In this document: piece by piece, positions 2,549 through 55,940 of the stretch | Numbering within the stretch: position 1 is the first letter of the stretch | Layout: the number at the start of each line of letters is the position of its first letter | Origin: Anaerolineales bacterium UBA4826 | Lineage (GTDB): Bacteria > Chloroflexota > Anaerolineae > UBA4142 | Assembly: GCA_002400365.1 (NCBI GenBank) | Contig: DHFK01000087.1 | Span: 9,635-73,634 of the forward strand | DNA: 64,000 nt | Reading direction: 5' to 3' | Notes under the pieces: generated by a model | The model's input: only the letters and a program-made list of their open reading frames with translations | Database searches by the model: none | What the model was told of the DNA's origin: nothing | Program-made: the position numbers and the translations under genes

Positions 2549-3718
2549 ATGAACAAGAAAACCATTCGCGACATCAACGTCAAAGACAAACGCGCGCTCG
2601 TCCGCGTGGACTTTAACGTGCCGCTGGAAAAGGGCCAAGTCGCCGACGACACGCGCCTCGTCGCGTCGCTGCCGACGATCCGGTACCTGGTCGCGCAGGG
2701 CGCGAAAGTGATCTTGTGCTCGCACCTCGGTCGCCCCAAGGGCAAGGACCAGAAACTGTCGCTGCGCCCGGTCGCGGCGCGGTTGCAGGACTTGCTCGGC
2801 AAGCCGGTCACCTTCGTGGGCGACTGCATCGGGCAGCCGGTCGAGCGCGTGGTGGAAGCGCTGAACGCGGGCGATGTGCTGCTGCTGGAGAACGTGCGCT
2901 TTTACCCCGAAGAAGAAAAGAACGATCCAGAGTTTGCCCGGCGACTGGCGGCGTTCGGCGATGTGTACGTGAACGATGCGTTCGGCTCCGCGCATCGCGC
3001 GCACGCCAGCACCGAGGGAGTGACGAAATATCTGCCCGGCGTCGCGGGCTTGCTAATGGAAAAGGAATTGAACTATCTCGGCAGCGCGCTCGCGCAGCCG
3101 GCAAAACCCTTCGTCGCGATCCTCGGCGGCGCAAAGGTGAGCGACAAGATCAAGGTGATCGAAAATCTCTTGCCGCAAGTTGATTCGCTGTTGATTGGGG
3201 GCGGCATGGCGAACACGTTCCTCGCCGCGCGCGGCTTGAACCTGGGGCAGTCGCTCGTCGAAGCGGACAAACTTGGTGTGGCAAAAGCGCTGATGGACAA
3301 GGGCGGCGCGAAGATCGTGCTGCCAGTCGACGCGGTGATCGCGGACAAGTTCGCGGCGGACGCGCAGAACAAGATCGTTCCGGTCGGCCAGGTGCCGGCA
3401 GACTGGCGCGTGCTCGACGTCGGTCCCCAGACGATCGCTGCGTTCTCGGAAATCTTAGGGGGCGCCAAGACAGTCGTGTGGAATGGACCGCTCGGCGTAT
3501 GCGAGTTCCCCGCGTTCGCGCAAGGCACCGTTGAGATCGCCAAGCGGCTGGCGCAGTCTGGCGCGACGACGATCATCGGCGGCGGCGACAGCGCGGCGGC
3601 GGTCGAGCAAGCCGGCGTCGCGGGCAAGCTGACGCACATCTCGACCGGCGGCGGCGCGTCGCTCGAGTTTCTGGAAGGGCGCGTGCTGCCGGGGGTGGCG
3701 GCGCTGCAGGACAAATAG
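2549..3718 (+). CDS. pgk: phosphoglycerate kinase
   Basis: 389 aa. N-terminal RVDFNVP motif, C-terminal [13 protein letters not shown] motif, and the usual gap-pgk synteny. Confidence 0.97.
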
Positions 3719-3789: not shown

Positions 3790-4080
3790 ATGACCCAAGC
3801 AGATGTCCTAAGAACCCTCAAGGCCTTGAAGCCTGAGTTCACCACGCGCTTTAAGGTCAAAGAACTCAGTCTCTTCGGCTCCTTCGTCCGAGGCGAGCAG
3901 ACAGAAGCCAGCGATGTTGACGTTCTGGTAGAATTCGACGAAAGCGCTAGTCTGTTTGATTTGGTAAGGTTGTCACTCTTTTTGGAAGATCAACTTCATC
4001 GGAAGATAGATGTCGTACCAAAGGATTCCTTGCGCATGGAATTCCGAGAGAATATCTTGCGCGAGAGGGTGACGGTATGA
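3790..4080 (+). CDS. mntA: MNT-type nucleotidyltransferase antitoxin (type VII TA)
   Basis: 96 aa. GSxxRG-x-DxD motif (FGSFVRGEQTEASDVDVLV). ATGA overlap with the downstream HepT gene. Confidence 0.85.
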   Translation: MTQADVLRTLKALKPEFTTRFKVKELSLFGSFVRGEQTEASDVDVLVEFDESASLFDLVRLSLFLEDQLHRKIDVVPKDSLRMEFRENILRERVTV

Positions 4081-4445
4081 GAGACTATCGGATTTTTCTC
4101 AAGGACATCTTGGCGGCGATCAAAAGCATCCAGACATTCATCGCGGGGATGGATCTCGAAACTTTCCAATCGGATGACAAGACGACGAGCGCGGTTATTC
4201 GCAAGTTCGAAATCATCGGCGAAGCCGTGCGGGGTGTTCCCGAAGACATTCGCACCGCCTATGCCAAAGTCGCGTGGAAAGAAATGGCGGGGATGCGTGA
4301 TCGCCTGATTCATTTCTATATGGGCGTCAATTATCGGCTTATCTGGAAAACGATTCAAGAGGACTTGCCTACGACCGAAGCGCAGATTCAAAAAATCCTT
4401 GAGGAAAACCCAGCCGACCCGGCAAACGGGCGGGTCTCGGAATGA
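4077..4445 (+). CDS. hepT: HepT (DUF86) HEPN-family RNase toxin
   Basis: 122 aa. Rx4HxY HEPN motif (RDRLIHFY). Translationally coupled to the MNT gene. Confidence 0.85.
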   Translation: MRDYRIFLKDILAAIKSIQTFIAGMDLETFQSDDKTTSAVIRKFEIIGEAVRGVPEDIRTAYAKVAWKEMAGMRDRLIHFYMGVNYRLIWKTIQEDLPTTEAQIQKILEENPADPANGRVSE

Positions 4446-6875: not shown

Positions 6876-7319
6876 TTACGGTAACGTAATGACCTTGCCC
6901 GTCTCAGTCCACACGCCATCTTCCTTATCGGTGTGGTACTTGCCCTGTCCCCGCAGGAGAAACTTGCCGGTGCCGGTCGCTTCGAGTTTGATGTTCTTGC
7001 CACCCAACGACACGACGATGTTGCTTCCGCTGATCTGCGCTTGCCCATCAAACCCGACATAGATGACGGTGCGGTCGTTGGGTTGGCGCTTGATGCCTTT
7101 GCCGCTGACATTGATGTCCGCGTCACCGGCAAGGTCGCGCATGGACAACACCCCTGACCCACTGAGGGTGATCGAACCGCTCCCTTTCATCGCGGCAAAT
7201 CCATCACCCTCTGCAGTTAGCGAGCCGGTGCCACCACCTTGCTCTGCCGCGGCGATGGCAGTCAGTAGCAAGGCGGCAACCAGTGCGAGAGTGAATGCGA
7301 CGACCAATTTGCCTTTCAT
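6876..7319 (-). CDS. small secreted protein of unknown function
   Basis: 147 aa. Signal-peptide-like N-terminus MKGKLVVAFTLALVAALLLTAIAAAEQ. Strong SD (AGGGAGG) 7 nt upstream. Confidence 0.6.
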   Translation of the reverse strand: MKGKLVVAFTLALVAALLLTAIAAAEQGGGTGSLTAEGDGFAAMKGSGSITLSGSGVLSMRDLAGDADINVSGKGIKRQPNDRTVIYVGFDGQAQISGSNIVVSLGGKNIKLEATGTGKFLLRGQGKYHTDKEDGVWTETGKVITLP

Positions 7320-7345: not shown

Positions 7346-7468
7346 TCATCGCGAGACAGCCCGAACACTTTTTTGCGACAGACCTAGCCAAATCACGAGT
7401 GCGATGCAAATCAGCGACGAGAGCACGTCCGTAGCCAGTTGGCTCAAGAATTTCTTGACGTTGCGCAT
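7346..7468 (-). CDS. candidate 40-aa small membrane protein
   Basis: Hand-translated as MRNVKKFLSQLATDVLSSLICIALVIWLGLSQKSVRAVSR. One hydrophobic helix, weak SD. It is below the ORF-track length cutoff. Confidence 0.25.
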   Translation of the reverse strand: MRNVKKFLSQLATDVLSSLICIALVIWLGLSQKSVRAVSR

Positions 7469-7486
7469 ACACACTAGTCCCCTCTG

Positions 7487-7555
7487 TCACATCCCCGGCT
7501 GGCGGAGAACCAGCCACGTACCGATTGCGATGATCGAAAACTGATGCTGTGACAT
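7487..7555 (-). CDS. candidate 22-aa small ORF
   Basis: Hand-translated as MSQHQFSIIAIGTWLVLRQPGM. GGGAGG sits 7 nt upstream of the ATG. It lies downstream of the TTTACA direct-repeat site. Confidence 0.25.
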   Translation of the reverse strand: MSQHQFSIIAIGTWLVLRQPGM

Positions 7556-7621
7556 GGTTTTGCCTCCCACCGTCTTATCACGTGGATCATCGCGCTAGCG
7601 GGTTAAGGCGGAATGAAACTG

Positions 7622-7639
7622 CTGTAAAATGACTGTAAA
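7622..7639 (-). promoter_or_regulatory. OmpR/PhoB-style direct-repeat site (TTTACAGTCATTTTACAG on the minus strand)
   Basis: Two TTTACA units spaced 11 bp apart. The site is near-identical to the one at 9976-9993 and sits at a similar distance from a -10-like hexamer. Confidence 0.5.
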
Positions 7640-7641
7640 AC

Positions 7642-7678
7642 AAAAAAGGCGCGACGCCCGTTCGACAGGCGTCGCGCC
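7642..7678 (-). terminator. rho-independent terminator of the histidine kinase gene
   Basis: Perfect 11-bp GC-rich stem (GGCGCGACGCC / GGCGTCGCGCC) with a 9-nt loop, followed on the minus strand by TTTTTTG. It starts 3 nt after the stop at 7681. Confidence 0.85.
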
Positions 7679-7680
7679 TT

Positions 7681-9129
7681 TCAGCGCACCGGCAGATGAA
7701 TGGTGAACACGCTGCCGTGCCCCGGTTCGCTCTTCACCGTGATCGCGCCGCCGTGCGCGGCGACGATTTCTTTGGCAATGGCTAGCCCCAAGCCGGTGCC
7801 GCCGGCGACGCGCGCTTTATCGCCGCGATAAAACCGCGCAAAGAGGCGCGGCAAGTCGTCCGCGGGAATGCCTTCGCCCGTGTCGGCGACGGCGATCCGA
7901 ATCCATCGCTGCGTCGGGGTCTTGCCTGCCGACCACCGCGCGAGCAAAGTGCTTTTGCCAGCGCTTTCTAGCGCTTCGGCTTTGGCGGTCACGGTGACTG
8001 TTCCGCCCGGGCGATTGTACTTGATCGCGTTTTCGACCAGGTTGGTCACGACTTGTTCCAATTGGCCGGCGTCGCCGGTGATTGGAGGGAGGGCGTCAAC
8101 CATGGCGACGATCGTCGCAGCCGGGATGTTCGCGCGCGCGCGGCAACGCTCGATCCAGCGCGGCAAGAGTTCGCCCAAGTCAACCCGGTCCTGCGCGAGC
8201 GCGATTTGCCCGGATTCCAGCCGCGCGAGCGTGAGCAAATTGCCAACCAAGCGCGCCATCCGCCCGGCTTCGTCGAAGATCGTTTGCGCGGCGCGGCGCG
8301 CCCCCGCCAGGTCATAGGTCGTCCCGTCGAGAATCGCCTGCGAAAAGCCCTGGATCGAAGTGAGCGGCGTTTTCAATTCGTGCGAGACGTTCGCGACGAA
8401 ATCTTTTTCCATCTGCCGCGCGCGCTGCATCTGCTCCGCCATCGCGTTGAAACTCGCGCCCAGCCGTCCGATTTCATCGCGCCCCCGGGCGTCGACGCGA
8501 TGAGCGTACTCTCCGCGCGCCAGCGCTTCGGTTGCCTGCGTCAAGCGCGTGATCGGTCGGGCAATCGAGCGCGCCAGCCAGAGCGCGGCGAGCAGCGAGA
8601 CCACTAACGTGATCGCGCCGGCGAGCAAGAGACTCGCGCCGATGTCGTCGAGCACGGCGAAGAAGGGCTGTTCTTTTGCCGCCAAACCCACGTACACCTG
8701 CTGCCCGCCGACCTGGCCTGCCAGCACGGCGACGTACAGCAGCGTGCGATTGAGGTTGCGTTGTGGATGAACGCCCCAGATGAATCCGCGGGGAGTGCCC
8801 GGCTTGTTCAGTGGCGTGAAAGAGATGTTGCGATTGGTCAAGCCATTTGCCGCGTCCGCCAGCACCAGCCCTTTGTCGGTCACGATGATGAGATCGCCGA
8901 CGCCGGTAGTTTGCTGCTGGAGCCGCGTCATCACCTCGCGCGGCGGAACGTTGTTGAGGAGCAGCGCGCGCGCCTGGAACGCCAACGGCACGACGGCATC
9001 CCCCAGGCGCGCGAGTTGGACATCGCGCTGGTACGCGCGCAGAATCACTGCCAGACTCACCGCGACGATCGCGAGCGTGAGCAGGATGACAAAGACGAAG
9101 GTTAGGGCAAGGCGCGTTCTAAGAGACAT
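7681..9129 (-). CDS. sensor histidine kinase (2 TM, HAMP, HisKA, HATPase_c)
   Basis: 482 aa. H-box SHELKTPLTSIQGF. N/G boxes (NAIKYN, DTGEGI, GGTGLGLAIAK). Two hydrophobic segments flank a periplasmic region of about 150 aa. Confidence 0.92.
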   Translation of the reverse strand: MSLRTRLALTFVFVILLTLAIVAVSLAVILRAYQRDVQLARLGDAVVPLAFQARALLLNNVPPREVMTRLQQQTTGVGDLIIVTDKGLVLADAANGLTNRNISFTPLNKPGTPRGFIWGVHPQRNLNRTLLYVAVLAGQVGGQQVYVGLAAKEQPFFAVLDDIGASLLLAGAITLVVSLLAALWLARSIARPITRLTQATEALARGEYAHRVDARGRDEIGRLGASFNAMAEQMQRARQMEKDFVANVSHELKTPLTSIQGFSQAILDGTTYDLAGARRAAQTIFDEAGRMARLVGNLLTLARLESGQIALAQDRVDLGELLPRWIERCRARANIPAATIVAMVDALPPITGDAGQLEQVVTNLVENAIKYNRPGGTVTVTAKAEALESAGKSTLLARWSAGKTPTQRWIRIAVADTGEGIPADDLPRLFARFYRGDKARVAGGTGLGLAIAKEIVAAHGGAITVKSEPGHGSVFTIHLPVR

Positions 9130-9134
9130 CCGAC

Positions 9135-9215
9135 TTTCGATTGCCGATCCTTCGGCAAGCGCAGGACAGGTTTTTCGATTTTCGATTGGGGCGCGCCAGA
9201 AATCGGCAATCGAAA
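9135..9215. repeat. TTTCGAT-unit repeat/hairpin between the kinase and regulator genes
   Basis: TTTCGATTGCCGAT (9135-9148) is the perfect reverse complement of ATCGGCAATCGAAA (9202-9215). An internal TTTTCGATTTTCGATT tandem lies at 9172-9187. Confidence 0.8.
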
Positions 9216-9231
9216 ATCGAACATCGAGAAT

Positions 9232-9900
9232 TCATCCGCCGACAAGTTTGTAGCCGACACCGCTCACCGTTTCAATTTGCGTCCGCGCGCCGGCGAGTTT
9301 CTTGCGCAAATGCGCGACGTGAACGTCCACCGTGCGCGTCTCGCCTGGGAAATCAAAGCCCCAGGCGATTTCCAGCAAGCGTTCGCGCGTCAAGACGATG
9401 CCGGGGTTTTGCATCAGCACCGCGAGCAAATCGAATTCTTTGGCGCGGAGCGCCACTGGCTTGCCCGCCGCCGTGACTTCGCGCCGATCCAGATCCAGAA
9501 CCACATCGCCGACGCTGAGGCGCTGGGTCTTGGGCGCGGGATTGACGCGGCGGAAAATCGCCTTGACGCGCGCGACGAGTTCGCGTGGGTTGAACGGCTT
9601 GGTCAGGTAATCGTCCGCGCCGAGTTCCAGTCCGACGATCTTGTCCACGTCCTGATCGCGCGCGGTCAGCATGATGATCGGCGCGTCGCTTTCCTGGCGG
9701 ATGCGGCGGCACACTTCCCAGCCGTCCAGCCCCGGCAGCATCAAATCGAGGATGACCGCCGCCGGCTTGAGCGCGCGAAAGCGGTCGAGCGCAGTCTTGC
9801 CGTCATACGCGGTTTCAATTTGATAGCCCTCTTTTTCCAGGTACAGGCGTTCCAGTTCGATGATGTTCTTTTCGTCGTCCACCAGGAGCAGCGTGGTCAT
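9232..9900 (-). CDS. OmpR/PhoB-family DNA-binding response regulator
   Basis: 222 aa. Receiver domain (LLVDDE, DLMLPGLDG, KP) plus a winged-helix trans_reg_C domain (LTRKEFDLL-type, VGYKL). Confidence 0.93.
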   Translation of the reverse strand: MTTLLLVDDEKNIIELERLYLEKEGYQIETAYDGKTALDRFRALKPAAVILDLMLPGLDGWEVCRRIRQESDAPIIMLTARDQDVDKIVGLELGADDYLTKPFNPRELVARVKAIFRRVNPAPKTQRLSVGDVVLDLDRREVTAAGKPVALRAKEFDLLAVLMQNPGIVLTRERLLEIAWGFDFPGETRTVDVHVAHLRKKLAGARTQIETVSGVGYKLVGG

Positions 9901-9929
9901 GCGAGACTCCGCGATTCGGTTTCAATGAA

Positions 9930-9958
9930 ATTATAGGACGGACGCGGGGGAATGTCAA
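9930..9958 (-). promoter_or_regulatory. consensus sigma70-type promoter TTGACA-17-TATAAT for the response regulator operon
   Basis: The minus strand reads TTGACA (9958-9953), a 17-nt spacer, then TATAAT (9935-9930). The ATG at 9900 has GGAG 8 nt upstream. Confidence 0.65.
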
Positions 9959-9975
9959 AGGGTTTACTCCGCAAA

Positions 9976-9993
9976 ATGTAAAATCACTGTAAA
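9976..9993 (-). promoter_or_regulatory. OmpR/PhoB-style direct-repeat site (TTTACAGTGATTTTACAT on the minus strand)
   Basis: Two TTTACA units with 11-bp spacing, 18 nt upstream of the -35 hexamer of the regulator's own promoter. Confidence 0.5.
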
Positions 9994-10018: not shown

Positions 10019-10047
10019 TTGTCACTCGGCGCTTTTGCGGCTATAAT
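10019..10047 (+). promoter_or_regulatory. promoter candidate TTGTCA-17-TATAAT, implying a leaderless mRNA
   Basis: TTGTCA 10019-10024, 17-nt spacer, TATAAT 10042-10047. The ATG at 10055 is only 7 nt after the -10 hexamer. Confidence 0.5.
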
Positions 10048-10054
10048 CGCGGCG

Positions 10055-10807
10055 ATGGATTCGAATGTATCCAACGACTTGGCTGTACGTCCATCCTTTG
10101 CGTTGTCCCCGGTGCCGTGGGGTTGGCGCGACTTGGGCTGGGCGATCCTCCTCGCAGCGGGCGCCATCCTCGCGCTCAACCTCGGCGCGCTGGCGTTGAG
10201 TGTTGGAGTGCGCCTGCCCGTCCACGGAAATGGAGTCATCCTCGCGCTCTTTGTCGTCGTCCAAGACCTGATCATCGTCGTCGCGGCGTGGCGGTTTAGC
10301 GTCGCGCGTTACCGCGTGGGCTGGGGGCAACTGGGCTTGCGCGGGTTCGACGCGGCGTTCGGCTGCCTGACCGGCGCGGCGTTGTTCTTTCTGTCGTACG
10401 TCGTGCGCGTCTGCTACGCCGCGACCGCGCTGGGCTTGGGGATAAAACTGGAACCGCAAGCCGTGCTGGCGCGCCTGGACACCAGCGGCTGGGCATTTTT
10501 CTTGACGCTTCTCAGCGCGGCGGTCTGGGCGCCGGTAGCCGAGGAGATTTTCTTTCGCGGCTTTCTGTACGGCAGTCTGCGCGGGCGCATCGGCGCGCGC
10601 GGCGCGATGATAGCCAGCACGTTCTTTTTCACCGCGCTGCATTTCAGTCTCGACGCCTTTATCCCGCTCTTTGTTCTGGGCTTGTGCCTGGCGTGGCTGT
10701 ACGAAAAGACCGGCTCGCTCTACCCGGGCATGATTCTGCACGCGTCGAACAATGCGGTTGCGCTCGTCGCGTTGTTCGTCACGCAAGCCATGGGGGTCAA
10801 GGTGTAA
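10055..10807 (+). CDS. CPBP-family (CAAX-type) intramembrane glutamic protease
   Basis: EEIFFRGFLY, FTALHF and HASNN motifs, multiple TM segments. I moved the start to the ATG at 10055, because the ORF-track TTG at 10019 coincides with a -35 hexamer. Confidence 0.85.
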   Translation: MDSNVSNDLAVRPSFALSPVPWGWRDLGWAILLAAGAILALNLGALALSVGVRLPVHGNGVILALFVVVQDLIIVVAAWRFSVARYRVGWGQLGLRGFDAAFGCLTGAALFFLSYVVRVCYAATALGLGIKLEPQAVLARLDTSGWAFFLTLLSAAVWAPVAEEIFFRGFLYGSLRGRIGARGAMIASTFFFTALHFSLDAFIPLFVLGLCLAWLYEKTGSLYPGMILHASNNAVALVALFVTQAMGVKV

Positions 10808-10979: not shown

Positions 10980-10991
10980 ACAGCGAAGGCA

Positions 10992-11068
10992 GAAGGATGA
11001 AGGATGAAGGATGACAAACAGCGCGCTGCGATCAGTTTTCATCCTTCATCCCTCATCCCTCATCCTTT
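10992..11068. repeat. tandem-heptamer hairpin (GAAGGAT x3 / ATCCYTC x4)
   Basis: GAAGGAT x3 at 10992-11012. Complementary ATCCTTC, ATCCCTC, ATCCCTC and ATCCTTT units at 11041-11068. It lies between tRNA-Leu and tig. Confidence 0.9.
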
Positions 11069-11101: not shown

Positions 11102-12565
11102 GTGAAAGTTACCACGGAACGCACCCCGAATTGCAACGCCGTCGTCACCGTCGAGGTGGACGACGACCAAGTCCAACGCGCGTTAAAGAACGCGGCAGTG
11201 CGCGTCTCGCGCATCCGCCCGATCCCCGGCTTTCGCCCCGGCAAGGCGCCGTACGCACGCGTCGAACGCGCGGTAGGCAAGGACCTCTTGCTCGACGAAG
11301 CGATTGACGAACTGGCGCAATCGCTCTACAAGCAAGTTCTGAAAGACGCAAACATCGAACCCTACGACGCCGGCAGCGTCGAGGTCGTGCAAAAGCAGCC
11401 GGTCATCTTAAAGTTCACGGTCCCCACGCGCCCGGTCGTCACGCTGGGCGACTATCGCTCCATCTACATTCAGCCCGAGCCGGTCGAAGTGAGCGCTGCG
11501 GAGGTGAATCAGGTCATCGAGCGCTGGCGCACGGAGCAAGCCACACTCGTGCCAGTCACGCGACCTGTGCAGCTGGGCGATCGCATTACCATCAATGTCA
11601 AAGGTGGGATCGAAAACCAGACGCAGATAGACCGCGAGAGCATGGAAGTGCAGATGGAGCCGGAGAAATTGCTCTTTCCCTGGTTGGAGCAACTCGTCGG
11701 CGCGAACGCCAACACGCCGCTCTCGATTACCTACACCTACCCAGCGGATGCGGCGGCGCCGGTCGCCGGCAAGACGGCGACGTACGCCGTGACCGTCACG
11801 GAAATCAAAGAGACCCAGTTGCCGGAACTCGACGACGCGTTCGCCCAGTCCATCAGCGCGTTCGAAACGCTCGACCAGTTGAAAAGGCGCGTCCGCGCGA
11901 ATCTGCTGGCGGAAAAGCAAGACGCGGAAAACAATCGCTATGCCGACCAGGTGGTGGACGCCGTGGTGGCGCAAGCGCAGATCGAGTACCCCGATTCCAT
12001 GATCGAAGACGAGCTCAACGTCGAGGTCGAGCAATCGAAAGACCTTGCCAAGCGGCTGAGTCTGACCTGGCAAAAGTACCTGGAATTGGCAAAGCAGGAC
12101 GAGAGCACGTATCGTGAAGCCAGCCGCCCGCGCGCGGAAAAGCGGCTCAAGCGCTTGCTGGCGCTGATGCAGGTCGCCGAAGCGGAAAAACTCGCGGTCA
12201 CCGCCAAGGACGTGGACGTGGAAATTGATCTGCGCGCGCAGCAAGACGCGCGCGCCGGCGGGAGCGCGGAGCAAACGCGCCGCGCGCTGGCGACGTCCGA
12301 TTCCCGGCGCGACATCGAGTTTACGCTCAGACTGCGCAAGGCGATCGCCTTTTTGGTCGCTTCCGCCAAGGGCGAGCCGACGAGCGGAAAGATCGTGACG
12401 CCAGACATGGTGCTCGCCGAACGCCGCGCCCGCGCGCAAGCCGCCGCGGCGGCAACCGCCGAGACCGGCGTATCGCCCAGCGGCTTGATCACCGATCCGT
12501 CTCAAGTGCGCGCGGAGGATTGGCCCCGCGGGCTGGACCATCCGCTGCTGCCAGGACAAGAGTAA
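11102..12565 (+). CDS. tig: trigger factor
   Basis: 487 aa. The N-terminal ribosome-binding region carries GFRPGKAP, the signature trigger-factor motif. Usual tig-clpP-clpX synteny. GTG start. Confidence 0.93.
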   Translation: MKVTTERTPNCNAVVTVEVDDDQVQRALKNAAVRVSRIRPIPGFRPGKAPYARVERAVGKDLLLDEAIDELAQSLYKQVLKDANIEPYDAGSVEVVQKQPVILKFTVPTRPVVTLGDYRSIYIQPEPVEVSAAEVNQVIERWRTEQATLVPVTRPVQLGDRITINVKGGIENQTQIDRESMEVQMEPEKLLFPWLEQLVGANANTPLSITYTYPADAAAPVAGKTATYAVTVTEIKETQLPELDDAFAQSISAFETLDQLKRRVRANLLAEKQDAENNRYADQVVDAVVAQAQIEYPDSMIEDELNVEVEQSKDLAKRLSLTWQKYLELAKQDESTYREASRPRAEKRLKRLLALMQVAEAEKLAVTAKDVDVEIDLRAQQDARAGGSAEQTRRALATSDSRRDIEFTLRLRKAIAFLVASAKGEPTSGKIVTPDMVLAERRARAQAAAAATAETGVSPSGLITDPSQVRAEDWPRGLDHPLLPGQE

Positions 12566-12644
12566 TTTCAGATTTCAGATTTATGCTTTAAGATTTGGCG
12601 CGCCCTCAAGTGGACGTGGAAATCATAAATCTGAAATCTGAAAT
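12565..12644. repeat. tandem-octamer hairpin (ATTTCAGATTTCAGATTTATG and its perfect complement)
   Basis: Perfect 21-bp inverted repeat, 12565-12585 versus 12624-12644, each arm made of TTCAGATT-type units. It lies between tig and clpP. Confidence 0.9.
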
Positions 12645-12663
12645 TTAGCAGGAGTCTCAAAGA

Positions 12664-20036: not shown

Positions 20037-20156
20037 CGTCTTGACAATGTTGGATTAGCCACAGAGCGCACAGAGGACGCAGAGAAAAATCTGTTCTTTC
20101 CTCTGTGTTCTCTGTGTCCTCTGTGGCGGAAAGGAAAATGTAACATTGTCAAGACG
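20037..20156. repeat. 120-nt compound hairpin: 15-bp outer stem plus CACAGAG-unit inner arms
   Basis: CGTCTTGACAATGTT (20037-20051) is the perfect complement of AACATTGTCAAGACG (20142-20156). The inner arms are CCACAGAG CGCACAGAG GACGCAGAG versus CTCTGTGTT CTCTGTGTC CTCTGTGG. Confidence 0.9.
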
Positions 20157-27770: not shown

Positions 27771-30407
27771 ATGCATCTCAAACACCTCGACCTGCACGGC
27801 TTTAAGACATTCGCCAATCGCACCAATTTCGTGTTCGACCTCGGCGTAACCGCGATCGTGGGTCCGAATGGCTCGGGCAAGAGCAACATCGCGGACGCCG
27901 TGCGTTGGGTGATGGGCGAGCAATCCTACAGCGAACTGCGCGTAAAAAAGACCGAAGACCTGATCTTTACCGGCAGCGCGACGCGCCCACGGATGGGCAT
28001 GACCGAAGTTTCGATGATGCTGGAGAATCCGAATCCGTGGACGGAGGCCGCCGCAGACGCGGAGCGCACCGGGGATACAGAGAAAACAAAACTCGACCCC
28101 GTGACCGAGTTGCTTCGCTCGAATCCATCCGAGGTGACGATCGGTCGCCGCGCGTACCGCGACGGCGGCAACGAGTACTTTCTCAACGGCGCGCGCGTGC
28201 GCCTGCGCGACATCTTCGAACTCCTCGCGCGCTGGGGCTTGGCGCGCAACACTTACGCCGTCGTCGGGCAGGGCTTGATTGACCAGGCGCTCTCGCTCCG
28301 TCCCGAAGAACGCCGTGCGCTGTTCGAAGAAGCCGCCGGCATCGGTCTCTATCAATCCAAGCGTCAGAACGCGATGGAGAAACTGGAAGAGACCAAGCAG
28401 AATCTCCTGCGCGTCAACGACATCATCAACGAAATCTCGCCGCGCCTACCCGCGCTGGCGCGCCAAGCCGAACGCGCGCGCAATTACGGCAGCGTCGTCA
28501 ACACGCTCGACGAGAAACTGCGCTTGTGGTACGCGTTTCAGTGGGCGCGCGCCCAGCAAGCCGCGCAAGAGACCGCCGCGCGCGAACACGCCGCGCGCGC
28601 CACATTGAACGCGCGGCGCGCGGGGGTGCAGGACCTCGCCGCCCGGCTCGCGCAGTGGCGGCGGCAGGGCCAGGAACTGCGCCAGCAACTTGCGCAAGCG
28701 CGCCACGCGCGGACGCAACTGGAACAGCAGCACGCGACCCACACGCGCGAACTCGCCGTCCTAGAAGAACGCCTGCGCTTGACGACGCAACAGCGCGATG
28801 AAGCCGCCGCCGAAATCGCGGCGCTCGCAGAATCGCAACGCGCGCAAGAACGACACATTGAGCAAGCGGCGAACCAAAGACAAGGGAAAGAGCAAGAACG
28901 GGACGGCGTGGCAGAGCGTCTGAGCAGGAGCGAAAAGGAACTGCGGGAATTGGAACACCGCGCCGCGCACGCCGAGGCGATGCTGGAGGAGAGCGCGCCA
29001 GAGATCCGCGGACTCGCCAAGCAACTCGCGTCGCTGCGTTCGGAATTCGGCATCTACGAAGAGGGCTTGCGCGCGGCCGCCGCGCTCAGCGTCCAAGCCG
29101 ACGCGCTCACCTCCTTTGAATACAAGCGCGCGCAAGCCGAACGCGCGGTCGAAACCGCGCGCGGTCAACTGACCGAGTTGCGCGCCGCGCTCGCGATCGC
29201 CGAACGCGATGTCGCCGGCGCGCGCGCGGAGGAACAGTCGGCGCGCACCGCGCTTGCCCAGTGGAACGCGCAGGTCGCCGCGCGCGCGCGCCGCGTCGAG
29301 TCGTTCACACGCCAGGTCGAAACCTTGACCGCGCAGCGCGATCAGTTGCGAACGCGCGCGGAGGCATCTGCCCGCGCGCTCGCGGAAAACGATCAGAGCA
29401 TCGCACCTGCCGAGACAAAACTGGCGGACGCGGAAAAAGCGCAGATAGATTTGGAGGAGCAGGAGACCGTAGAGCGCGCGCGGCTGGCGGAATTCGAGGA
29501 CGCGCACAATCGCGCGGTGCTGGACGCGGAACGCAGTCGCGCCGAGATCGCGCGGCTCGAAACCGAAATCGAAGACGACCTCGCCTCAGGTCGGATCGTA
29601 TCCGAAATTGTCGTAGACCCCGCTCGCCGCAGCGGGGACGAAAACGGCAACGGGCGCGAGACGGCGATCGTTCTCAACGCCGACCTGCCTACTCAACTGC
29701 GCTTGCAGTTGGGCGACGAAGTGGTCGCGCTGCCGGTCGTGACCGCCGCGCCCGAAGGACTCGAAAAAGAGATTCGCAAATTACGCAACCAGTTAAAGTA
29801 CATGGGCTCGGTGAATCCGAACGCGCCGCAGGAATTCGATGAGTTGAAAGCGCGCCATCAGTTTCTTACCGAGCAAGCCGCCGACGCGCAGCACGCGATC
29901 GAGAAATTGAACGTGGCGATCGCCGAACTCGACGAGATCATGCGGCGAAAATTCCAAGAGACGTTCAAAGCGATCAACGTCGAATTCACCAAGTTCTTTG
30001 CGATCCTATTCGACGGCGGGACGGCGCGCCTGGAACTGACGAATCCCGAAGACCTCACGCAAACCGGGATTGACGTGATCGCCAAGCCGCCGGGCAAGCG
30101 CGCCGCGCACCTCGCCATGCTTTCCGGCGGCGAGCGCGCGCTCACCGCGACCGCGCTGTTGTTCGCGATCCTCAAGGTCTCGCCGACGCCGTTCTGCGTG
30201 TTGGACGAGGTGGACGCGATGCTCGACGAGGCGAACGTCGGGCGCTTTCGCGACGCGCTCAAGACGCTGACCGCCGGCACGCAGTTCATCGTCATCACGC
30301 ACAATCGCACGACGATGGAAAGCGCGGACGCGGTCTATGGCATCACGATGAACGAGGATGGCGTATCGCAAGCGATTTCGTTGCGGTTGGAGTCAACGAA
30401 TGGGTAA
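27771..30407 (+). CDS. smc: SMC-family chromosome segregation ATPase, short form without a recognisable hinge
   Basis: N-terminal head FKTFANRT...[14 protein letters not shown]-terminal head [17 protein letters not shown]...[16 protein letters not shown]...THNRTTME. The ~490 aa between the heads is uninterrupted Ala/Arg/Glu/Gln-rich coiled-coil-like sequence. Confidence 0.85.
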
Positions 30408-30466
30408 CGAATAGACGAATAGTTCCCGCCCATTCGTTCATTCGTTTATTCGTTGGTGATTCGTTG
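30394..30466. repeat. ACGAATAG-unit hairpin overlapping the smc stop
   Basis: CAACGAATGGGTAACGAATAGACGAATAG (30394-30422) versus CATTCGTTCATTCGTTTATTCGTTGGTGATTCGTTG (30431-30466). Confidence 0.8.
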
Positions 30467-30483
30467 AGGTAGTTTTCCAACCA

Positions 30484-34925: not shown

Positions 34926-34939
34926 CATTGACGATGGCT

Positions 34940-34999
34940 GATTTTCGATTTTCGATTGACCCCAACAGGAAATCGAAAATCAGAAATCGAAAACCGAAA
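34940..34999. repeat. TTTCGAT-unit hairpin
   Basis: GATTTTCGATTTTCGATT (34940-34957) versus AATCGAAAATCAGAAATCGAAAACCGAAAA (34971-35000). Same unit family as 9135-9215. Confidence 0.85.
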
Positions 35000-36112
35000 A
35001 TGAGTTTTGACGAACTGCTCTTCCAACTGGATAGCGCCGCATCGCTCAGCGCGAAAAAGCGCATGGTGCGCGAGTTCGCCGCGCGCCAGCCCTCCCCGAT
35101 CGTCGAGGATAACAGCGTCACGTTTTTCTATGTGAGCGAGGACGCCCGCGACGTCGCGTTGGAAGGCGATTGGACCCACTGGCAGCCGACCGCGCCGATG
35201 ACGTATTTGCCGGACACGCCGCTCTGGTATCGCGTCGAGCGATTTCCGCGCGAGGCGCGGCTGGAGTATCGGATCGTCGTCAACGGCACCCGCCGCCTCC
35301 TCGATCCCGGCAACCCGCGCACCGCGCCCAGCGGCTTTGGACTGCACTCTGAACTCGCCATGCCCGATTACCACGCGCCGCGCGAAGTGAGCGACCAGGG
35401 ACGCATCGCGCGCGGCGCGGTCGAGCAGCATTGGATGACCAGCAAGGCGCTGAACGATCGGCGCACGTTCTGGGTCTGGCTGCCGCCGCATTTCAACGCG
35501 CAGAAACCCCACCCGGTCGCGTACTTTAACGACGGCGGCGATTACTTGCGCCTCGCCGATCTGCCGCGCCTCCTGGACTATCTGGTCGAATGGGGTCGCA
35601 TCCCGCCGCTCATCGCCGTGCTCGCGAAACCGAACGATCGGGTCAAGGAGTACGCGCGCAACAACCAGTACGTGCGCTTTCTCGTGGACGAACTCGTGCC
35701 GTGGGTGGATGGCCTGTACCCGACGCGCGATGCGCCGGCGGCGCGCGCCATCATCGGCGCGTCGTACGGCGGATTGTGCGCCGCGCATGTAGCGCGCCGC
35801 CGCCCCAATGTCTTCGGCTTGGTCGGCGGACAATCGGGCTATTACAGTTACCAGAACGATGCGCTGCTGCGCGATTATGCGGCGGCGCAGAACCTCGGCA
35901 TCCGTTTCCACCTGGTCGTCGGCTCATTCGAAACCGATGCGCGCGGCAATGGCAAACCCGAAAGCGACTTGGTAGCGGCGCAGCGTCGCTTTGCGGAACT
36001 GTTACGCGGCAAAGGGTACGACGTGGCGTGCGCCGAGTATCCGGAGGGACATCAATGGGGATTTTGGCGCGCGCACGTCGGCGACGCGCTGAGATTTTTC
36101 TGGGGATGCTGA
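35000..36112 (+). CDS. esterase-D/enterochelin-esterase-like hydrolase with N-terminal Ig/CBM48-like domain
   Basis: GASYGG nucleophile elbow (GxSxG) and an N-terminal VTFFYVSEDARDVALEGDWTHW beta-sandwich-like region. ATG at 35000, with an alternative at 34934. The 34628 start is an artefact running through the dapA-like gene end. Confidence 0.72.
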   Translation: MSFDELLFQLDSAASLSAKKRMVREFAARQPSPIVEDNSVTFFYVSEDARDVALEGDWTHWQPTAPMTYLPDTPLWYRVERFPREARLEYRIVVNGTRRLLDPGNPRTAPSGFGLHSELAMPDYHAPREVSDQGRIARGAVEQHWMTSKALNDRRTFWVWLPPHFNAQKPHPVAYFNDGGDYLRLADLPRLLDYLVEWGRIPPLIAVLAKPNDRVKEYARNNQYVRFLVDELVPWVDGLYPTRDAPAARAIIGASYGGLCAAHVARRRPNVFGLVGGQSGYYSYQNDALLRDYAAAQNLGIRFHLVVGSFETDARGNGKPESDLVAAQRRFAELLRGKGYDVACAEYPEGHQWGFWRAHVGDALRFFWGC

Positions 36113-36182
36113 AGAACAGAGGAGACAGGAAAGATGAAAGATGAAAGATGAAAAACGACCCTCTCCTCTTTCATCTTTCTTC
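36111..36182. repeat. GAAAGAT-unit hairpin between convergent genes
   Basis: GGAAAGATGAAAGATGAAAGATGAAAA (36128-36154) versus CTCTCCTCTTTCATCTTTCTTC (36161-36182). A 13-nt perfect pairing is possible. Confidence 0.8.
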
Positions 36183-37531
36183 TATTTGAGCAACGCGGCA
36201 AGCACTGCATCGCTGACCAGTTGCGGGAACAAACCGAGGACGATAATCGCCGCGACGAGCAGCATCACCACGAACGTACACAGGTACGGCACAAGCTTCA
36301 ATTCGCCGTTTGATTCTAGCGCGCCAGCGCGTTCCGCCATGACACTCCAGACCATGCGCAACACTGCCACCACCACCAACCCGTTGGACGCCAGGAGCAG
36401 CGCGATAAATGCGATGTTCGATCGCGCGAGATCGCGGTAAATCGCATAGCCCGCAGCAAAGCCCAGCGCGGGCGGAAGGTTGGCGAGCGAGAAACCGCCA
36501 AAGAGGATGGCGAGCGCGCCCACGTTCTGCCAACGACGCTCTGGATGATGGCGCACGAAACTAATTCCCCCCGCGACGAGCGCAACGCCGGCGGCGCGGC
36601 TTAACGTCGCCAGCATCGCCCCGGCAAGCCCCAGGCGCGTGCCCAAGCCCAAACCGATCAACGCGTATCCCAGCGGGACGAGCGAAAGGTACGCCAGCAA
36701 GCGCCCTTCGCGCCGCTCCGCTACCGCGAGCAATGCGCCGACCGGGACTGTGATGGCGCCGCCCAAAAGCAAAATGCCGAGCAGCGGCGTTTTGTCAGTC
36801 AGCCAGAGCGCCGCGTCCAGTTGCCGCATGAGCAGCCACAACCCTACGGGCTGCGCCACGCCGACCAGGAACGCGATCCCCAGCAACGGCATCTCGTCGG
36901 CAAGCGGTCCCAGCCAGATACTGAGCGGCGCGACCGCGAGCAACAAGCCGAGACCCAGCGCCAAGAAAATCAGCGCGGCCCGGACCAGCTCGAGATTTTC
37001 CGGCGTGAGCGGATACAAATCCACGAAACGACTGGCGATGAGCAAACTCGCGCCCGCGACGACGATCAGCAAGAGGAATTGCCCCGCGCCGCCGACGCGG
37101 CCCTCGCGTTGGGGATGCGCCAGCAGCATCAGCACGACCAGGCCGATCGCCCAGAACAAGACGGCGAGCGGAAAACTATTCAGCGTGATCGCGACGACGA
37201 GCGGCGCGAGACTCCAGAAGAAGAACGCGCCCTGGGAATTGGCGATGACGGCGGAGGGCGCATTGCTGGCGCGTTCAAACGTCAAGGGCCCGAAGAATGC
37301 CAGCGCGGCGGTGATCGCGATCGCGGGCGCGAGAAACGCGCGCGCGGCGGCGTCGAGCGCGAGCGATCGCCCGAAGAAAAAGATGGGCGCGCCGGCAGCC
37401 GTCGCCAGAATCGCGGCGAGCGCTGTTGCGCCGGCGAGCGAGGCGACAAAAACCAGCCGCGGCCAGCGGCGCAGGACGCGGATCGCCACGCCGGTCGCCA
37501 GGCAGACCGCCGTCATCACGAGAATACTCAT
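36182..37531 (-). CDS. divergent NuoN/MnhD-like (Proton_antipo_M-like) polytopic membrane protein
   Basis: 449 aa, about 13 TM segments. LSIWLGPLADEMPLLGIAFLVG and GRLLAYLSLVPLGYALIGLG resemble the WLPxA..P.SA and KRLLAYSS..H.G blocks of antiporter-like subunits, with key residues changed. Confidence 0.45.
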   Translation of the reverse strand: MSILVMTAVCLATGVAIRVLRRWPRLVFVASLAGATALAAILATAAGAPIFFFGRSLALDAAARAFLAPAIAITAALAFFGPLTFERASNAPSAVIANSQGAFFFWSLAPLVVAITLNSFPLAVLFWAIGLVVLMLLAHPQREGRVGGAGQFLLLIVVAGASLLIASRFVDLYPLTPENLELVRAALIFLALGLGLLLAVAPLSIWLGPLADEMPLLGIAFLVGVAQPVGLWLLMRQLDAALWLTDKTPLLGILLLGGAITVPVGALLAVAERREGRLLAYLSLVPLGYALIGLGLGTRLGLAGAMLATLSRAAGVALVAGGISFVRHHPERRWQNVGALAILFGGFSLANLPPALGFAAGYAIYRDLARSNIAFIALLLASNGLVVVAVLRMVWSVMAERAGALESNGELKLVPYLCTFVVMLLVAAIIVLGLFPQLVSDAVLAALLK

Positions 37532-43254: not shown

Positions 43255-43260
43255 CGTACT

Positions 43261-43326
43261 CTTTACGTTTTACGTTTTAGACGAGGTAAAGCGTAAATCG
43301 TAAAACGTAAATCGCAAAACGTAAAA
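43261..43326. repeat. ACGTAAA-unit hairpin within the btu-like operon
   Basis: CTTTACGTTTTACGTTTTA (43261-43279) versus TAAAGCGTAAATCGTAAAACGTAAATCGCAAAACGTAAAA (43287-43326). Confidence 0.85.
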
Positions 43327-45682: not shown

Positions 45683-45865
45683 TGACAGAGACAGGTTTTC
45701 TGGCTTGCTAGCAGATAACGTATGGCAGATGGCAGATGGCTATTGAGGTTTTTGCCATAAGCCATTTGCTCTTTGCTATCTGCTAGTCCACAGTTGCGGG
45801 ACAGCGTCGGCTTGACCGAACTTGCCCTGTTTGGCTCTCCCTTTCGGAAAGAGTCACCTCTGTCA
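45683..45865 (-). promoter_or_regulatory. cobalamin riboswitch aptamer
   Basis: The minus strand contains GGTGAC..TTCCGAAAGGGAG..AACAGGGCAAG..GGTCAAGCC..GCTGTCCCGCAACTGTGG, then the B12 box AAGCCAGAAAACCTGTC. P1 pairs TGACAGAG (45865-45858) with CTCTGTCA (45690-45683). It is upstream of btuFCD-like genes. Confidence 0.85.
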
Positions 45866-53145: not shown

Positions 53146-55940
53146 TCGCTATTCGCCATCGCGTCCCAATTCTGCCCGACCGCGACATCCACCTTCAACT
53201 TTGATTCCAGCGCGTACGCGTTCTCCATGATCTCGCGCACGAGCGGCGCAACAACGCGTACCTCGTCGTCGGGACATTCGAGCACGAGTTCGTCATGCAC
53301 CTGGAGCGTCATCCGACTTTTCAAATTGCGCGCGTGCAGTTCGCGCTGCAACCGAATCATCGCCAGTTTAATAATGTCCGCCGCGCTGCCCTGAATCGGA
53401 TGGTTGATCGCTTCGCGCTCCGCCGCGTTCTTCAGCGCGGGGTTGACGCTGCCCTTGCCGCGCAGTTCGGGAAAATAACGCCGCCGCCCCAGGAGCGTCT
53501 GCACGTAGCCATGCTCGCGCGCCTCGCGCTTGGTGCTTTCGATGTACGCCTTGACCCGCGCGAACTGGGTAAAGTAATTGTCAATCAGTTGCCGCGCCTC
53601 GGCTTGCGACAACTCGGTGCGCGCGGCGACACCGTAATCGGTGATGCCGTAGGCGATGCCAAAGTTGATCGTCTTGCCCAACTGCCGCATGGACGCCGTG
53701 ACCTGCTCACGCGGGACGTTGAACAAGCGCGCGGCGGTCGCCGCGTGAATGTCCTCCCCGCGCGCGAACGCGTCGAGCAAACCCGGGTCGTGCGTGATGT
53801 GCGCGAGGATGCGCAGTTCGACCTGGGAATAATCCGCGCTGATGAGTTTGCTGCCGCGCGGCGCGATGAACGCGCGGCGCACCTGCCGCCCCAGGTCGGT
53901 GCGGATCGGAATGTTCTGCAAATTGGGGTTCGACGATGAGACGCGTCCTGTGATCGCGCCGGTCTGGTTGTAATCGGTGTGCACCCGCCCGGTGCGCGGC
54001 AACACCAGCGCGGGCAGCGCGTCCACATACGTCCCTTTGAGTTTCGACAACTCGCGGTGCTCGAGAATCAACGGGATGATCGGATGCGCGGCGCGCAGTG
54101 ACTCCAACACCTCGGCGGCGGTCGAAATCTGACCGGTTTTCGTCTTGGGTAACCCAGTCGTCGGCAGTTTCAGCCGCTTGTACAGCGCATCGCCCAATTG
54201 CTGCGGCGACGCGATGTTGATCGGCATTCCAACGTGCGTGGTGATTTGCTTTTCCAACTCTTGCAGCCGCGCGGCAAGTTCGTCCGACATCCGCGCCAAA
54301 AAGTCGAGATCGAGCAACACGCCGGCGCGTTCCATCTCCAGCAGCACCGGCACGAGCGGCATCTCGACCTCGTTGAACAATTTGTCGAGTCCGTGTTCCG
54401 CCAGTTGCGGCTGGTAGAGTTCGACGAGGCGATAAGTGTAATCGGCGTCCGCGCACGCGTAACGCGACACTTTTGCAGGATCCACCTCCGCCATCGAAAT
54501 CTGGTTCTTGCCCTTGCCGATCAGCGCCTCGATCTCCGTCATCTCGACGCCGAACTTTTGAAAGACCAAACTCTTCAAGCCGATGGATTGTCTCCCCGGC
54601 TCGATCAAATGCGCGGCGATCATCGAGTCGAACGCAAGTCCGCGCAGTTCGACGCCGGCTTCGGCAAGCACCGTCGCGTCATATTTCGCGTTGTGCGCGT
54701 ACTTGATAATGCGCGCATCTTCGAAGATCGGTTTCAGTTTGGCGAGAACGTGATCGCGCTTAAAAGATGAAGGGTGAAAGATGAAAGATGAAGGTACTGT
54801 ATCAAAGGCAAGTTGCCCTTGTTTCCCAACTTCATCTTTCAACTTTCTGCTTTCATCCTTCACGGGAACATAATACGCCTCGCCATTCCCCACGCCGATC
54901 GCCAACCCCACCAACTCCGCGCGCATCGCGTCGGTGTCGGTGGTCTCGACGTCAACGACAAACGCCTTTGCCGATTGCAGACGCGCGACCAATTGGTCGA
55001 GCGCGGCTTCCGTATCAACCGTGTGATAATTCTCGGCGATGGCTTGCGGCTTGGCGGCAACCGAGTCCGGCGGCGCCGGCTTGACGCCGGGCAGTCGTTC
55101 GATCAAACTGCGAAAGCCGAGTTCACGAAAGAGCGCGACGACGCGTTCGCGGTCGTACTCTTCGACGCGGCACGCGGCGAGATCGAGTTTCACCGGCGCG
55201 TCGGTCACGATCGTGACGAGTTGCTTGCCTTGCTCTGCCTGCGCTTGTCCCGCGCGCAATTTTTCTTGCCAGCGTTTTTCGATTTCCTCGAGGTGCGCGT
55301 AGATGTCTTCGACGCTGCCGTACGTCTGCACGAGTTTCGTCGCGGTCTTTTCGCCGATACCGGGGACGCCGGGGATGTTGTCGGACACATCGCCTTTGAG
55401 CGCCTTGAAATCAATCAGTTGGCGCGGCTCGAGTTGGTAGCGCTGCTTGACCGCCGCTTCGTCGTACACAACGAATCCGCCCCCCGACTGCGGCGAGAAC
55501 ATCAGCACGCGCACGTGCGGCCCGATCAGTTGCAGCGTGTCAGTGTCGCCGGTGACGATGAGCGTTTCGATGCCGCGTTCGCTTGCCTGCCGCGCGAGCG
55601 TGCCGAGCAGATCGTCCGCTTCGTACCCTTCCAGCCCGAACGCCGGAATGCCCAACGTCTCCACGACCTGGCGCGAGCGCTGCAACTGCGTCAACAAATC
55701 ATCGCCGAGTTCAGGGCGCGTGGCTTTGTATTCCGCGTACAGCGCGTCGCGAAAACTCTTGCCCACGTCGAACGCGGCGGCGATGTACTCGGGCTTTTCG
55801 TCGCTCAGGACTTTGAGAACCGTCGAGGTAAAGCCGTACGTCGCGTTGGTCGGTTCGCCGCTCGGGCTGGTGAGGTTGGTTTGGATCGCGTGGTACGCGC
55901 GGTGGATCAGTGCGTGCGAATCAAGGAGAACAAGTTTCAT
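53118..55940 (-). CDS. polA: DNA polymerase I
   Basis: 940 aa. 5-prime nuclease domain, 3-prime-5-prime exo-like domain (DVETT, KYAHNAKYD) and polymerase motifs A (DYSQVELR), B (RRAAKTINFGIAYG-like QLGKTINFGIAYG) and C (QVHDEL). Confidence 0.97.
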   Translation of the reverse strand: MKLVLLDSHALIHRAYHAIQTNLTSPSGEPTNATYGFTSTVLKVLSDEKPEYIAAAFDVGKSFRDALYAEYKATRPELGDDLLTQLQRSRQVVETLGIPAFGLEGYEADDLLGTLARQASERGIETLIVTGDTDTLQLIGPHVRVLMFSPQSGGGFVVYDEAAVKQRYQLEPRQLIDFKALKGDVSDNIPGVPGIGEKTATKLVQTYGSVEDIYAHLEEIEKRWQEKLRAGQAQAEQGKQLVTIVTDAPVKLDLAACRVEEYDRERVVALFRELGFRSLIERLPGVKPAPPDSVAAKPQAIAENYHTVDTEAALDQLVARLQSAKAFVVDVETTDTDAMRAELVGLAIGVGNGEAYYVPVKDESRKLKDEVGKQGQLAFDTVPSSFIFHPSSFKRDHVLAKLKPIFEDARIIKYAHNAKYDATVLAEAGVELRGLAFDSMIAAHLIEPGRQSIGLKSLVFQKFGVEMTEIEALIGKGKNQISMAEVDPAKVSRYACADADYTYRLVELYQPQLAEHGLDKLFNEVEMPLVPVLLEMERAGVLLDLDFLARMSDELAARLQELEKQITTHVGMPINIASPQQLGDALYKRLKLPTTGLPKTKTGQISTAAEVLESLRAAHPIIPLILEHRELSKLKGTYVDALPALVLPRTGRVHTDYNQTGAITGRVSSSNPNLQNIPIRTDLGRQVRRAFIAPRGSKLISADYSQVELRILAHITHDPGLLDAFARGEDIHAATAARLFNVPREQVTASMRQLGKTINFGIAYGITDYGVAARTELSQAEARQLIDNYFTQFARVKAYIESTKREAREHGYVQTLLGRRRYFPELRGKGSVNPALKNAAEREAINHPIQGSAADIIKLAMIRLQRELHARNLKSRMTLQVHDELVLECPDDEVRVVAPLVREIMENAYALESKLKVDVAVGQNWDAMANSEWRIANGEG
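53124..53158. repeat. five tandem TTCGCCA-type heptamers at the polA end and the next gene's start
   Basis: TTCGCCA TTTGCGA TTCGCCA TTCGCTA TTCGCCA. On the minus strand it encodes the polA tail MANSEWRIANGEG and contains the ATG at 53145. Confidence 0.85.
54762..54863. repeat. GAAAGAT-unit hairpin inserted in frame in polA
   Basis: AAAAGATGAAGGGTGAAAGATGAAAGATGAAGG (54762-54794) versus CCAACTTCATCTTTCAACTTTCTGCTTTCATCCTTCAC (54826-54863). 17 of 18 bases pair in the core. On the minus strand it reads VKDESRKLKDEVGKQGQLAFDTVPSSFIFHPSSFK. Confidence 0.88.

Follow-up and report, generated by a model that had tools for sequence, protein, structure and literature searches.

Conserved paired TTTACA repeats at the promoter of an OmpR/PhoB-type two-component operon and at a probable target promoter beyond it in Anaerolineales

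Does the response regulator of a little-studied, uncultured bacterium read two near-identical direct repeats, one ahead of its own operon and one just beyond it? The repeats lie on the minus strand of a 64-kilobase (kb) stretch of DNA from Anaerolineales bacterium UBA4826 (contig DHFK01000087.1), here called the window and numbered from its first position, at either end of an operon for an OmpR/PhoB-family response regulator and a sensor histidine kinase. A preliminary description of the window had taken OmpR/PhoB-type repeats to mark an autoregulated system with a second target promoter past the kinase gene, and phylogenetic footprinting supports that view. Both sites quite probably bind the phosphorylated regulator encoded at 9900-9232; binding by this particular protein is what we infer from comparative sequence data. 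The elements on which the argument turns are as follows (lengths in amino acids [aa]).

9977 to 9993, minus strand: site 1, direct repeat R1-R2 (TTTACA-GTGAT-TTTACA), about -70 to -54 from the predicted transcription start of the regulator operon
7623 to 7639, minus strand: site 2, direct repeat R1-R2 (TTTACA-GTCAT-TTTACA), at about -60 to -44
9232 to 9900, minus strand: OmpR/PhoB-family response regulator, 222 aa (Pfam Response_reg PF00072, 7.8e-31; Trans_reg_C PF00486, 6.1e-26)
7681 to 9129, minus strand: sensor histidine kinase, 482 aa (Pfam HAMP, HisKA, HATPase_c)

Both repeats are present where they had been reported, reading TTTACAGTGATTTTACAT at 9993-9976 and TTTACAGTCATTTTACAG at 7639-7622, and the half-sites of each are hexamers in direct repeat with a period of 11 base pairs (bp), one helical turn. 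The exact form TTTACA-N5-TTTACA occurs twice in the 64 kb, at these sites only, and not once in 100 dinucleotide-preserving shuffles. With up to two mismatches allowed, the window holds five matches against a shuffle mean of 0.88; the further ones (13569, 38178, and 53568, two mismatches each) were dismissed as chance, having no -10 element at either of the spacings given below. The preliminary description had also limited the TGTAAA motif to the two sites and one hit at 41420, which is wrong: 10 TTTACA/TGTAAA hexamers were counted (shuffle mean, 8.4), four within the sites and six others at 32002, 41419, 47793, 50144, 51509, and 63802. The nonrandomness is confined to the paired, phased arrangement, and the single hexamer occurs at about its chance number.

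Orthologs of the kinase are many (58-78% identity) in metagenome-assembled genomes of Chloroflexota/Anaerolineae. The comparison set comprised 28 loci (L numbers below) representing 17 lineages besides the window, all Chloroflexota/Anaerolineales, with kinases 61-78% identical. Synteny is conserved, running from clpX-clpP-tig through a CPBP gene and the divergent regulator and kinase genes to a variable stretch and pgk-gap. The regulator is 82-90% identical across the orthologs, so the same DNA specificity is expected in all lineages. Conservation of the sites beside orthologous two-component pairs, a check that the preliminary description had proposed, was found: the repeat stands at the regulator promoter in 8 lineages and at 12 target promoters. 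In the information profile the 17-mer is kept, and intergenic sequence beyond the promoter elements is essentially without information. A weight matrix built from 20 sites, scanned over 214 kb (window plus ortholog loci), gave no further site above a threshold of 14 bits, which is 8 bits below the weakest real site (22.4 bits). The sites are real and conserved; the regulatory design is an ordinary one, textbook OmpR/PhoB-like.

The arrangement at the regulator's own promoter is constant. Distances are given in nucleotides (nt).

9930 to 9958, minus strand: regulator-kinase operon promoter (TTGACA, 17 nt, TATAAT; 12/12 match to consensus)

Its hexamers (TTGACA, 9958-9953; TATAAT, 9935-9930) bear out the consensus promoter that had been described, and site 1 lies 18 nt upstream of the -35, also as described. 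The eight lineages with this arrangement (the window, L087, L097, L102, L103, L107, L109, and L110; kinases 65-78% identical) share one layout, here class A: TTTACA-N5-TTTACA, 18 nt (19 in L103), TTGACn, 17 nt, TATAAT. The spacing of repeat to -35 is thus held at 18-19 nt throughout.

Site 2 belongs to a different promoter class, with no -35 element.

7644 to 7682, minus strand: intrinsic-terminator-like hairpin and T-run ending the kinase operon (18 pairs, 11 of them G-C, then TTTTTTGTTTT)
7601 to 7617, minus strand: degenerate phased repeats R3 (TTCATT, 7617-7612) and R4 (TTAACC, 7606-7601), at about -38 to -22, in the place of a -35
7586 to 7591, minus strand: target-promoter -10 element GATGAT, conserved, starting 31 nt after R2

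Target promoters of this kind (class B; n = 12, in nine lineages) read R1 TTTACA, N5, R2 TTTACA, N5, R3 with a TCAT core, N5, R4 with a TAA core, 9 nt, and the -10. R3 and R4 keep the 11-bp register and their TCAT and TAA cores across the 12, and a -10-like hexamer begins exactly 31 nt past R2 in every one (GATnnT in 10/12). Two statements of the preliminary description fall here. GATAAG (7579-7574), which it had taken for the -10, is not conserved, the conserved element being GATGAT at 7591-7586; and of the distances it gave from repeat to -10, the 41 nt of site 1 stands, but the 43 nt of site 2 becomes 31 nt. Class A (41 nt) and class B (31 nt) therefore differ by one helical turn. A pairing of R2 as -35 with R4 as -10 was ruled out, as the hexamer 17 nt past R2 is never T-final in the 12 promoters.

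The position of site 2 just past the kinase terminator, noted earlier, holds: a strong terminator-like hairpin with a T-run occupies 7682-7644. A counterpart of site 2 directly follows the kinase gene in L082, L086, L087, L088, L097, L098, L099, and L107. In L103 the counterparts precede relocated target genes, for a protein of about 250 aa and one of about 147 aa, both away from the kinase and each behind a separate class B promoter; L087 has the two genes as well, each with a motif site. The motif is therefore tied to the target genes, not just to a place downstream of the kinase.

The proteins are what had been called from the window: an OmpR-type regulator and a kinase, followed by small open reading frames (ORFs) and a secreted-protein gene. 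The system has the features of an OmpR/PhoB-family two-component pair, namely, receiver and winged-helix domains, an adjacent kinase in the same operon, and 11-bp hexamer repeats upstream of the -35 or replacing it. The kinase gene lies 102 nt downstream of the regulator gene, and the pairing is conserved in the orthologs. In the kinase, two transmembrane segments flank an extracytoplasmic domain of about 130 aa without a Pfam match, followed by HAMP, HisKA, and HATPase_c; Pfam found no PAS domain in it, and it lacks a cytoplasmic PAS.

Assignment to a named system was sought through solved structures and NCBIfam equivalog models. The closest solved relatives of the regulator (PDB search) are RegX3 (6e-58), PhoP of Mycobacterium tuberculosis (3e-56), and MtrA (1e-54). 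Its best NCBIfam match is MtrA (232.5; cut-off, 300), and it stays below every NCBIfam equivalog cut-off; the kinase scores 182.6 with the MtrB model (cut-off, 450). The phosphate equivalogs are likewise not reached, either by the regulator (PhoB, 220.8 against 296.2) or by the kinase (PnpS, 247.8 against 400; PhoR, 216 against 334.2), which aligns to the PnpS and PhoR models over its catalytic half only. The same holds for WalRK (regulator with YycF, 225.4 against 340; kinase with WalK, 269 against 725, C-terminal half only). MtrA-MtrB, RegX3-SenX3, and M. tuberculosis PhoP are the best sequence matches of the window regulator; these actinobacterial systems differ from it in phylum and in target genes. 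The recognition sequences of MtrA, RegX3, and M. tuberculosis PhoP differ from TTTACA.

The DNA sites point elsewhere. In Bacillus subtilis the PhoP core site is reportedly TT(A/T/C)ACA, four times, with an 11-bp period. Outgroup loci, obtained by a profile search with the full-length kinase alignment (generic H-box peptides matched; kinases 27-46% identical), contain 15 exact matches to TTTACA-N5-TTTACA, most with the same degeneracy of R3 and R4 and a canonical -10 placed 31 nt past R2, which in Bacillota and other Chloroflexota loci is TAnAAT. The motif and the 31-nt spacing precede PstS-type (PBP_like_2) genes in the Bacillota loci L054, L067, L072, and L074; the neighboring kinase of L074 passes the PnpS equivalog (514 bits against 400), and the site of L054 adjoins PhoU. 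These Bacillota sites are therefore Pho boxes of PhoPR/PnpRS-type systems, and, with the same motif and spacing ahead of pstS, the layout in the window is the Bacillus-type Pho-box layout. Shared are the hexamer, the 11-bp period, the orientation with respect to the coding strand, and the set of four phased repeats (about -60 to -22) that replaces the -35, with the -10 31 nt past R2. The window system differs in its kinase, which is without a cytoplasmic PAS, and in its targets, secreted proteins of orphan, lineage-specific families. The window, where a PstS homolog was sought, contains no pst or pho genes, and the targets are the ~250-aa and ~147-aa genes and one EamA-like gene.

The same motif with the 31-nt geometry was also observed at the Chloroflexota two-component loci L014 (2965), L016 (3585), L027 (3669), L028 (3861), and L035 (2551), with kinases about 35-43% identical; it lies there upstream of the gene for another conserved secreted protein, of about 180 aa and without a Pfam match.

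Other known sites share parts of the design. Both window sites, read as their reverse complement TGTAAA-N5-TGTAAA, fit exactly the TGTWAH-N5-TGTWAH consensus of WalR (YycF/VicR) of Bacillota (PMC4168254), also an OmpR-family protein with 11-bp hexamer repeats; however, the window has no walHIJ genes, its targets are not cell wall hydrolases, WalK has extracellular and cytoplasmic PAS domains where Pfam finds none in the window kinase, and the four-repeat layout replacing the -35 is more Pho-box-like. Half-sites of six conserved and five variable nucleotides are the norm for PhoB/PhoP (PMC2275107). The pho box of Escherichia coli PhoB is likewise built of 11-bp units (a core and a variable, AT-rich part), tandem and head to tail, replacing the -35 about 10 bp before the -10, and R3-R4 of the window end 9 nt before theirs; it differs in its core, CTGTCAT, and in that the strongest half-sites of the window are the promoter-distal pair. 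On these comparisons the window system appears to function like a Bacillus-type Pho box, without demonstrable membership in a named system.

Several observations weigh against a system in which this regulator binds both sites and activates its own operon. Other two-component systems of Chloroflexota and Bacillota carry a near-identical motif, and a paralog of the regulator could thus bind in its place or alongside it. L086 keeps kinase and site 2, yet no regulator gene adjoins them. The more distant L088, L105, and L106 are without site 1 yet have the consensus promoter; TTGACn-17-TATAAT is kept in every ortholog with the same gene context, these three included. The window's regulator promoter, too, is already a perfect consensus, and with the three lineages lacking site 1 this makes autoregulation dispensable and its sign uncertain. 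Lineages in which another operon has taken up the regulator gene lack site 1, too.

The alternative that survives best follows from the first of these points, namely, that the sites are read by a paralogous OmpR-family regulator, for example, the true phosphate regulator, with the operon and the secreted-protein genes as part of its regulon. The occurrence of the same hexamer, spacing, and 31-nt geometry at pstS in Bacillota and at the ~180-aa protein genes of other Chloroflexota speaks for it, as does L086, where site 2 manages without a neighboring regulator gene. We nonetheless consider it improbable: the sites persistently co-occur with this regulator-kinase pair across the 17 lineages, also directly upstream of the regulator gene itself, phosphate genes are absent from the window and from the targets, and the 214 kb hold no more sites.

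Site 1 itself lies between two back-to-back near-consensus promoters, the second of which faces the other way.

10019 to 10047, plus strand: promoter of the divergently transcribed CPBP/Rce1-like protease gene (TTGTCA, 17 nt, TATAAT)

The ATG of the CPBP/Rce1-like gene, at 10055, follows the TATAAT -10 by 7 nt, a gap repeated in L088 and L106; with the start codon so close, the mRNA is probably leaderless. Site 1 could be thought to control this promoter, or to dampen the regulator promoter in negative feedback, instead of activating the regulator operon. Most lineages do keep the CPBP gene in synteny with the two-component pair, and a 12/12 promoter needs no activator. But site 1 keeps its fixed 18-19 nt from the regulator -35 while its distance from the CPBP gene ranges from about 60 to about 185 nt among the orthologs, and the CPBP promoter is unaltered in lineages without site 1; for these reasons the CPBP gene is not counted as regulated, and its promoter is probably not the one under control. 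As for repression, site 1 overlaps neither core promoter, which would be unusual for a repressor, and its repeats are oriented as in the activated target promoters. Either role for site 1 seems distinctly improbable; with the reservation as to sign made above, it most likely provides modest positive feedback on the regulator operon.

That no protein reads the repeats at all, and that they are AT-rich sequence arisen by chance, hexamers resembling a -35 in overlapping promoters, or terminator T-tract, is scarcely credible: TTTACA does match the -35 consensus at five of six positions and site 2 does abut the terminator T-run, but the shuffles held no match, the repeat is kept where its flanks have diverged (loci without a terminator included), no T-final hexamer stands where R2 as a -35 would place its -10, and known regulators share the architecture.

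A working model for the regulator-bound sites can be drawn from this geometry, in which we infer where transcription starts, the sign of the regulation, and a cooperative tetramer. The kinase would sense some extracytoplasmic signal and phosphorylate the adjacent regulator, a head-to-tail dimer of which would occupy the two strong TTTACA half-sites 11 bp apart. At the target promoter, the strong distal pair (-60 to -44) would nucleate binding and a second dimer would join cooperatively at the degenerate pair (-38 to -22), where it would take over from the absent -35 and place RNA polymerase over the weak -10, GATGAT. In cryo-electron microscopy structures of M. tuberculosis PhoP, tandem dimers (tetramer and hexamer activation complexes) on direct repeats displace the contact of sigma region 4 with the -35 (PMC11825685), the mechanism that the model supposes for the target promoter. 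The transcript from the target promoter would cross the stump of a deleted gene and then a small membrane-protein ORF before reaching the gene for a 147-aa secreted protein. At the regulator's own operon, where the core promoter behind it is a complete consensus, the pair (-70 to -54) would face the same side of the helix from a position one turn farther out and would most likely give positive feedback.

The genes behind the target promoter in the window are as follows.

7487 to 7555, minus strand: small ORF 1, 22 aa (MSQHQFSIIAIGTWLVLRQPGM), probable stump of the ~250-aa target gene
7346 to 7474, minus strand: small ORF 2, 42 aa, predicted small membrane protein with homologs, preceding the 147-aa gene
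6876 to 7319, minus strand: 147-aa secreted protein, signal peptide and all-beta domain (AlphaFold2 model; family of 16 clusters)

In most lineages the class B promoter right after the kinase precedes the gene for the ~250-aa protein, which is secreted or a lipoprotein; other class B promoters drive the ~147-aa protein and, once, an EamA-like gene. The ~250-aa protein has no family match, and only six clusters of it, all hypothetical and one from Anaerolineales, were found among 5.8 billion. Following the class B promoter of the window, the 5' untranslated region (UTR), the ribosome-binding site, and the opening codons can be aligned with the beginning of the ~250-aa gene of L086, which encodes a signal peptide, and tblastn found no body of that gene in the window. 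The most plausible reading of the 22-aa ORF is therefore a stump left behind when a ~250-aa gene was deleted. This deletion probably joined that gene's promoter to the cassette of small ORF and 147-aa gene, and in the window genome the target promoter probably now expresses the 42-aa membrane protein and the 147-aa protein.

Homologs of the 42-aa protein occur upstream of the 147-aa gene in L087 (about 8470-8600) and as an N-terminal extension of P0132, and the family core D..LS.L.CI...I is invariant; the ORF is missing from the gene calls of the L001 and L087 contigs. The 147-aa family consists of 16 clusters among 5.8 billion, all of 146-198 aa. Its window member has no Pfam or NCBIfam match (DUF2807 only at E = 0.18). 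The AlphaFold2 model is all-beta and confident (pLDDT 87 overall and 96 in the mature part), and a search of the PDB gave no fold match for it (best E = 0.24, TM below 0.3). A GH39 glycosidase gene lies downstream in the window, with a weak promoter of its own.

Within the regulator-kinase operon, the spacer between the genes is itself a feature.

9130 to 9231, minus strand: regulator-kinase intercistronic spacer, a long hairpin with its 3' arm extending to the start codon of the kinase gene (-47.7 kcal/mol, z = -4.2)

This hairpin may limit translation of the kinase or mark a site of mRNA processing. Spacer hairpins with different tandem-repeat sequences stand at the same place in most of the orthologs checked (L087, L102, L105, L107, L097, L082, and L109); folding is weak in L106 and L098. 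In L098 (about 2460-2500) and L099 (about 640-740 and 2930-3180), the 5' UTRs of both regulator and target operons are filled with tandem repeats of about 9 nt, CCAACTATC, and their complement, GGATAGTTGG.

Elsewhere in the window there are at least nine long intergenic hairpins in which one arm consists of tandem repeats of about 7 nt and the other of their complement (10986-11067, 12564-12645, 20058-20127, 30393-30467, 34932-35004, 36132-36183, 43257-43323, 45708-45786, and 54763-54860). The repeat unit varies by site (GAAGGAT, TTTCAGA, CACAGAG, TTTCGAT, GATGAAA, and others), and the hairpins are apparently a lineage-wide intergenic feature. A toxin-antitoxin pair was also observed between the GH39 region and pgk, and is absent from most orthologous loci.

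3790 to 4445, plus strand: toxin-antitoxin pair of the nucleotidyltransferase/HepT-like type (96 aa and 122 aa; 4-nt overlap)

For the Anaerolineales, a little-studied group with almost no experimentally defined regulons, these results provide an operator-promoter model of an uncharacterized two-component system, specifying the half-site, the phasing of four sites, and a fixed distance to the -10, and they place a Bacillus-type Pho-box geometry in use outside Bacillota. An unlikely but not far-fetched possibility is that this promoter grammar is ancient across Bacillota and Chloroflexota and in Anaerolineales came to serve orphan secreted proteins, a regulon private to the group, in place of phosphate genes, or alternatively that the system is an unrecognized sensor of phosphate (or of another envelope or nutrient cue), with the orphan proteins as its new class of effectors. 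The two orphan secreted-protein families and the small membrane protein linked to the system offer entry points toward its signal.

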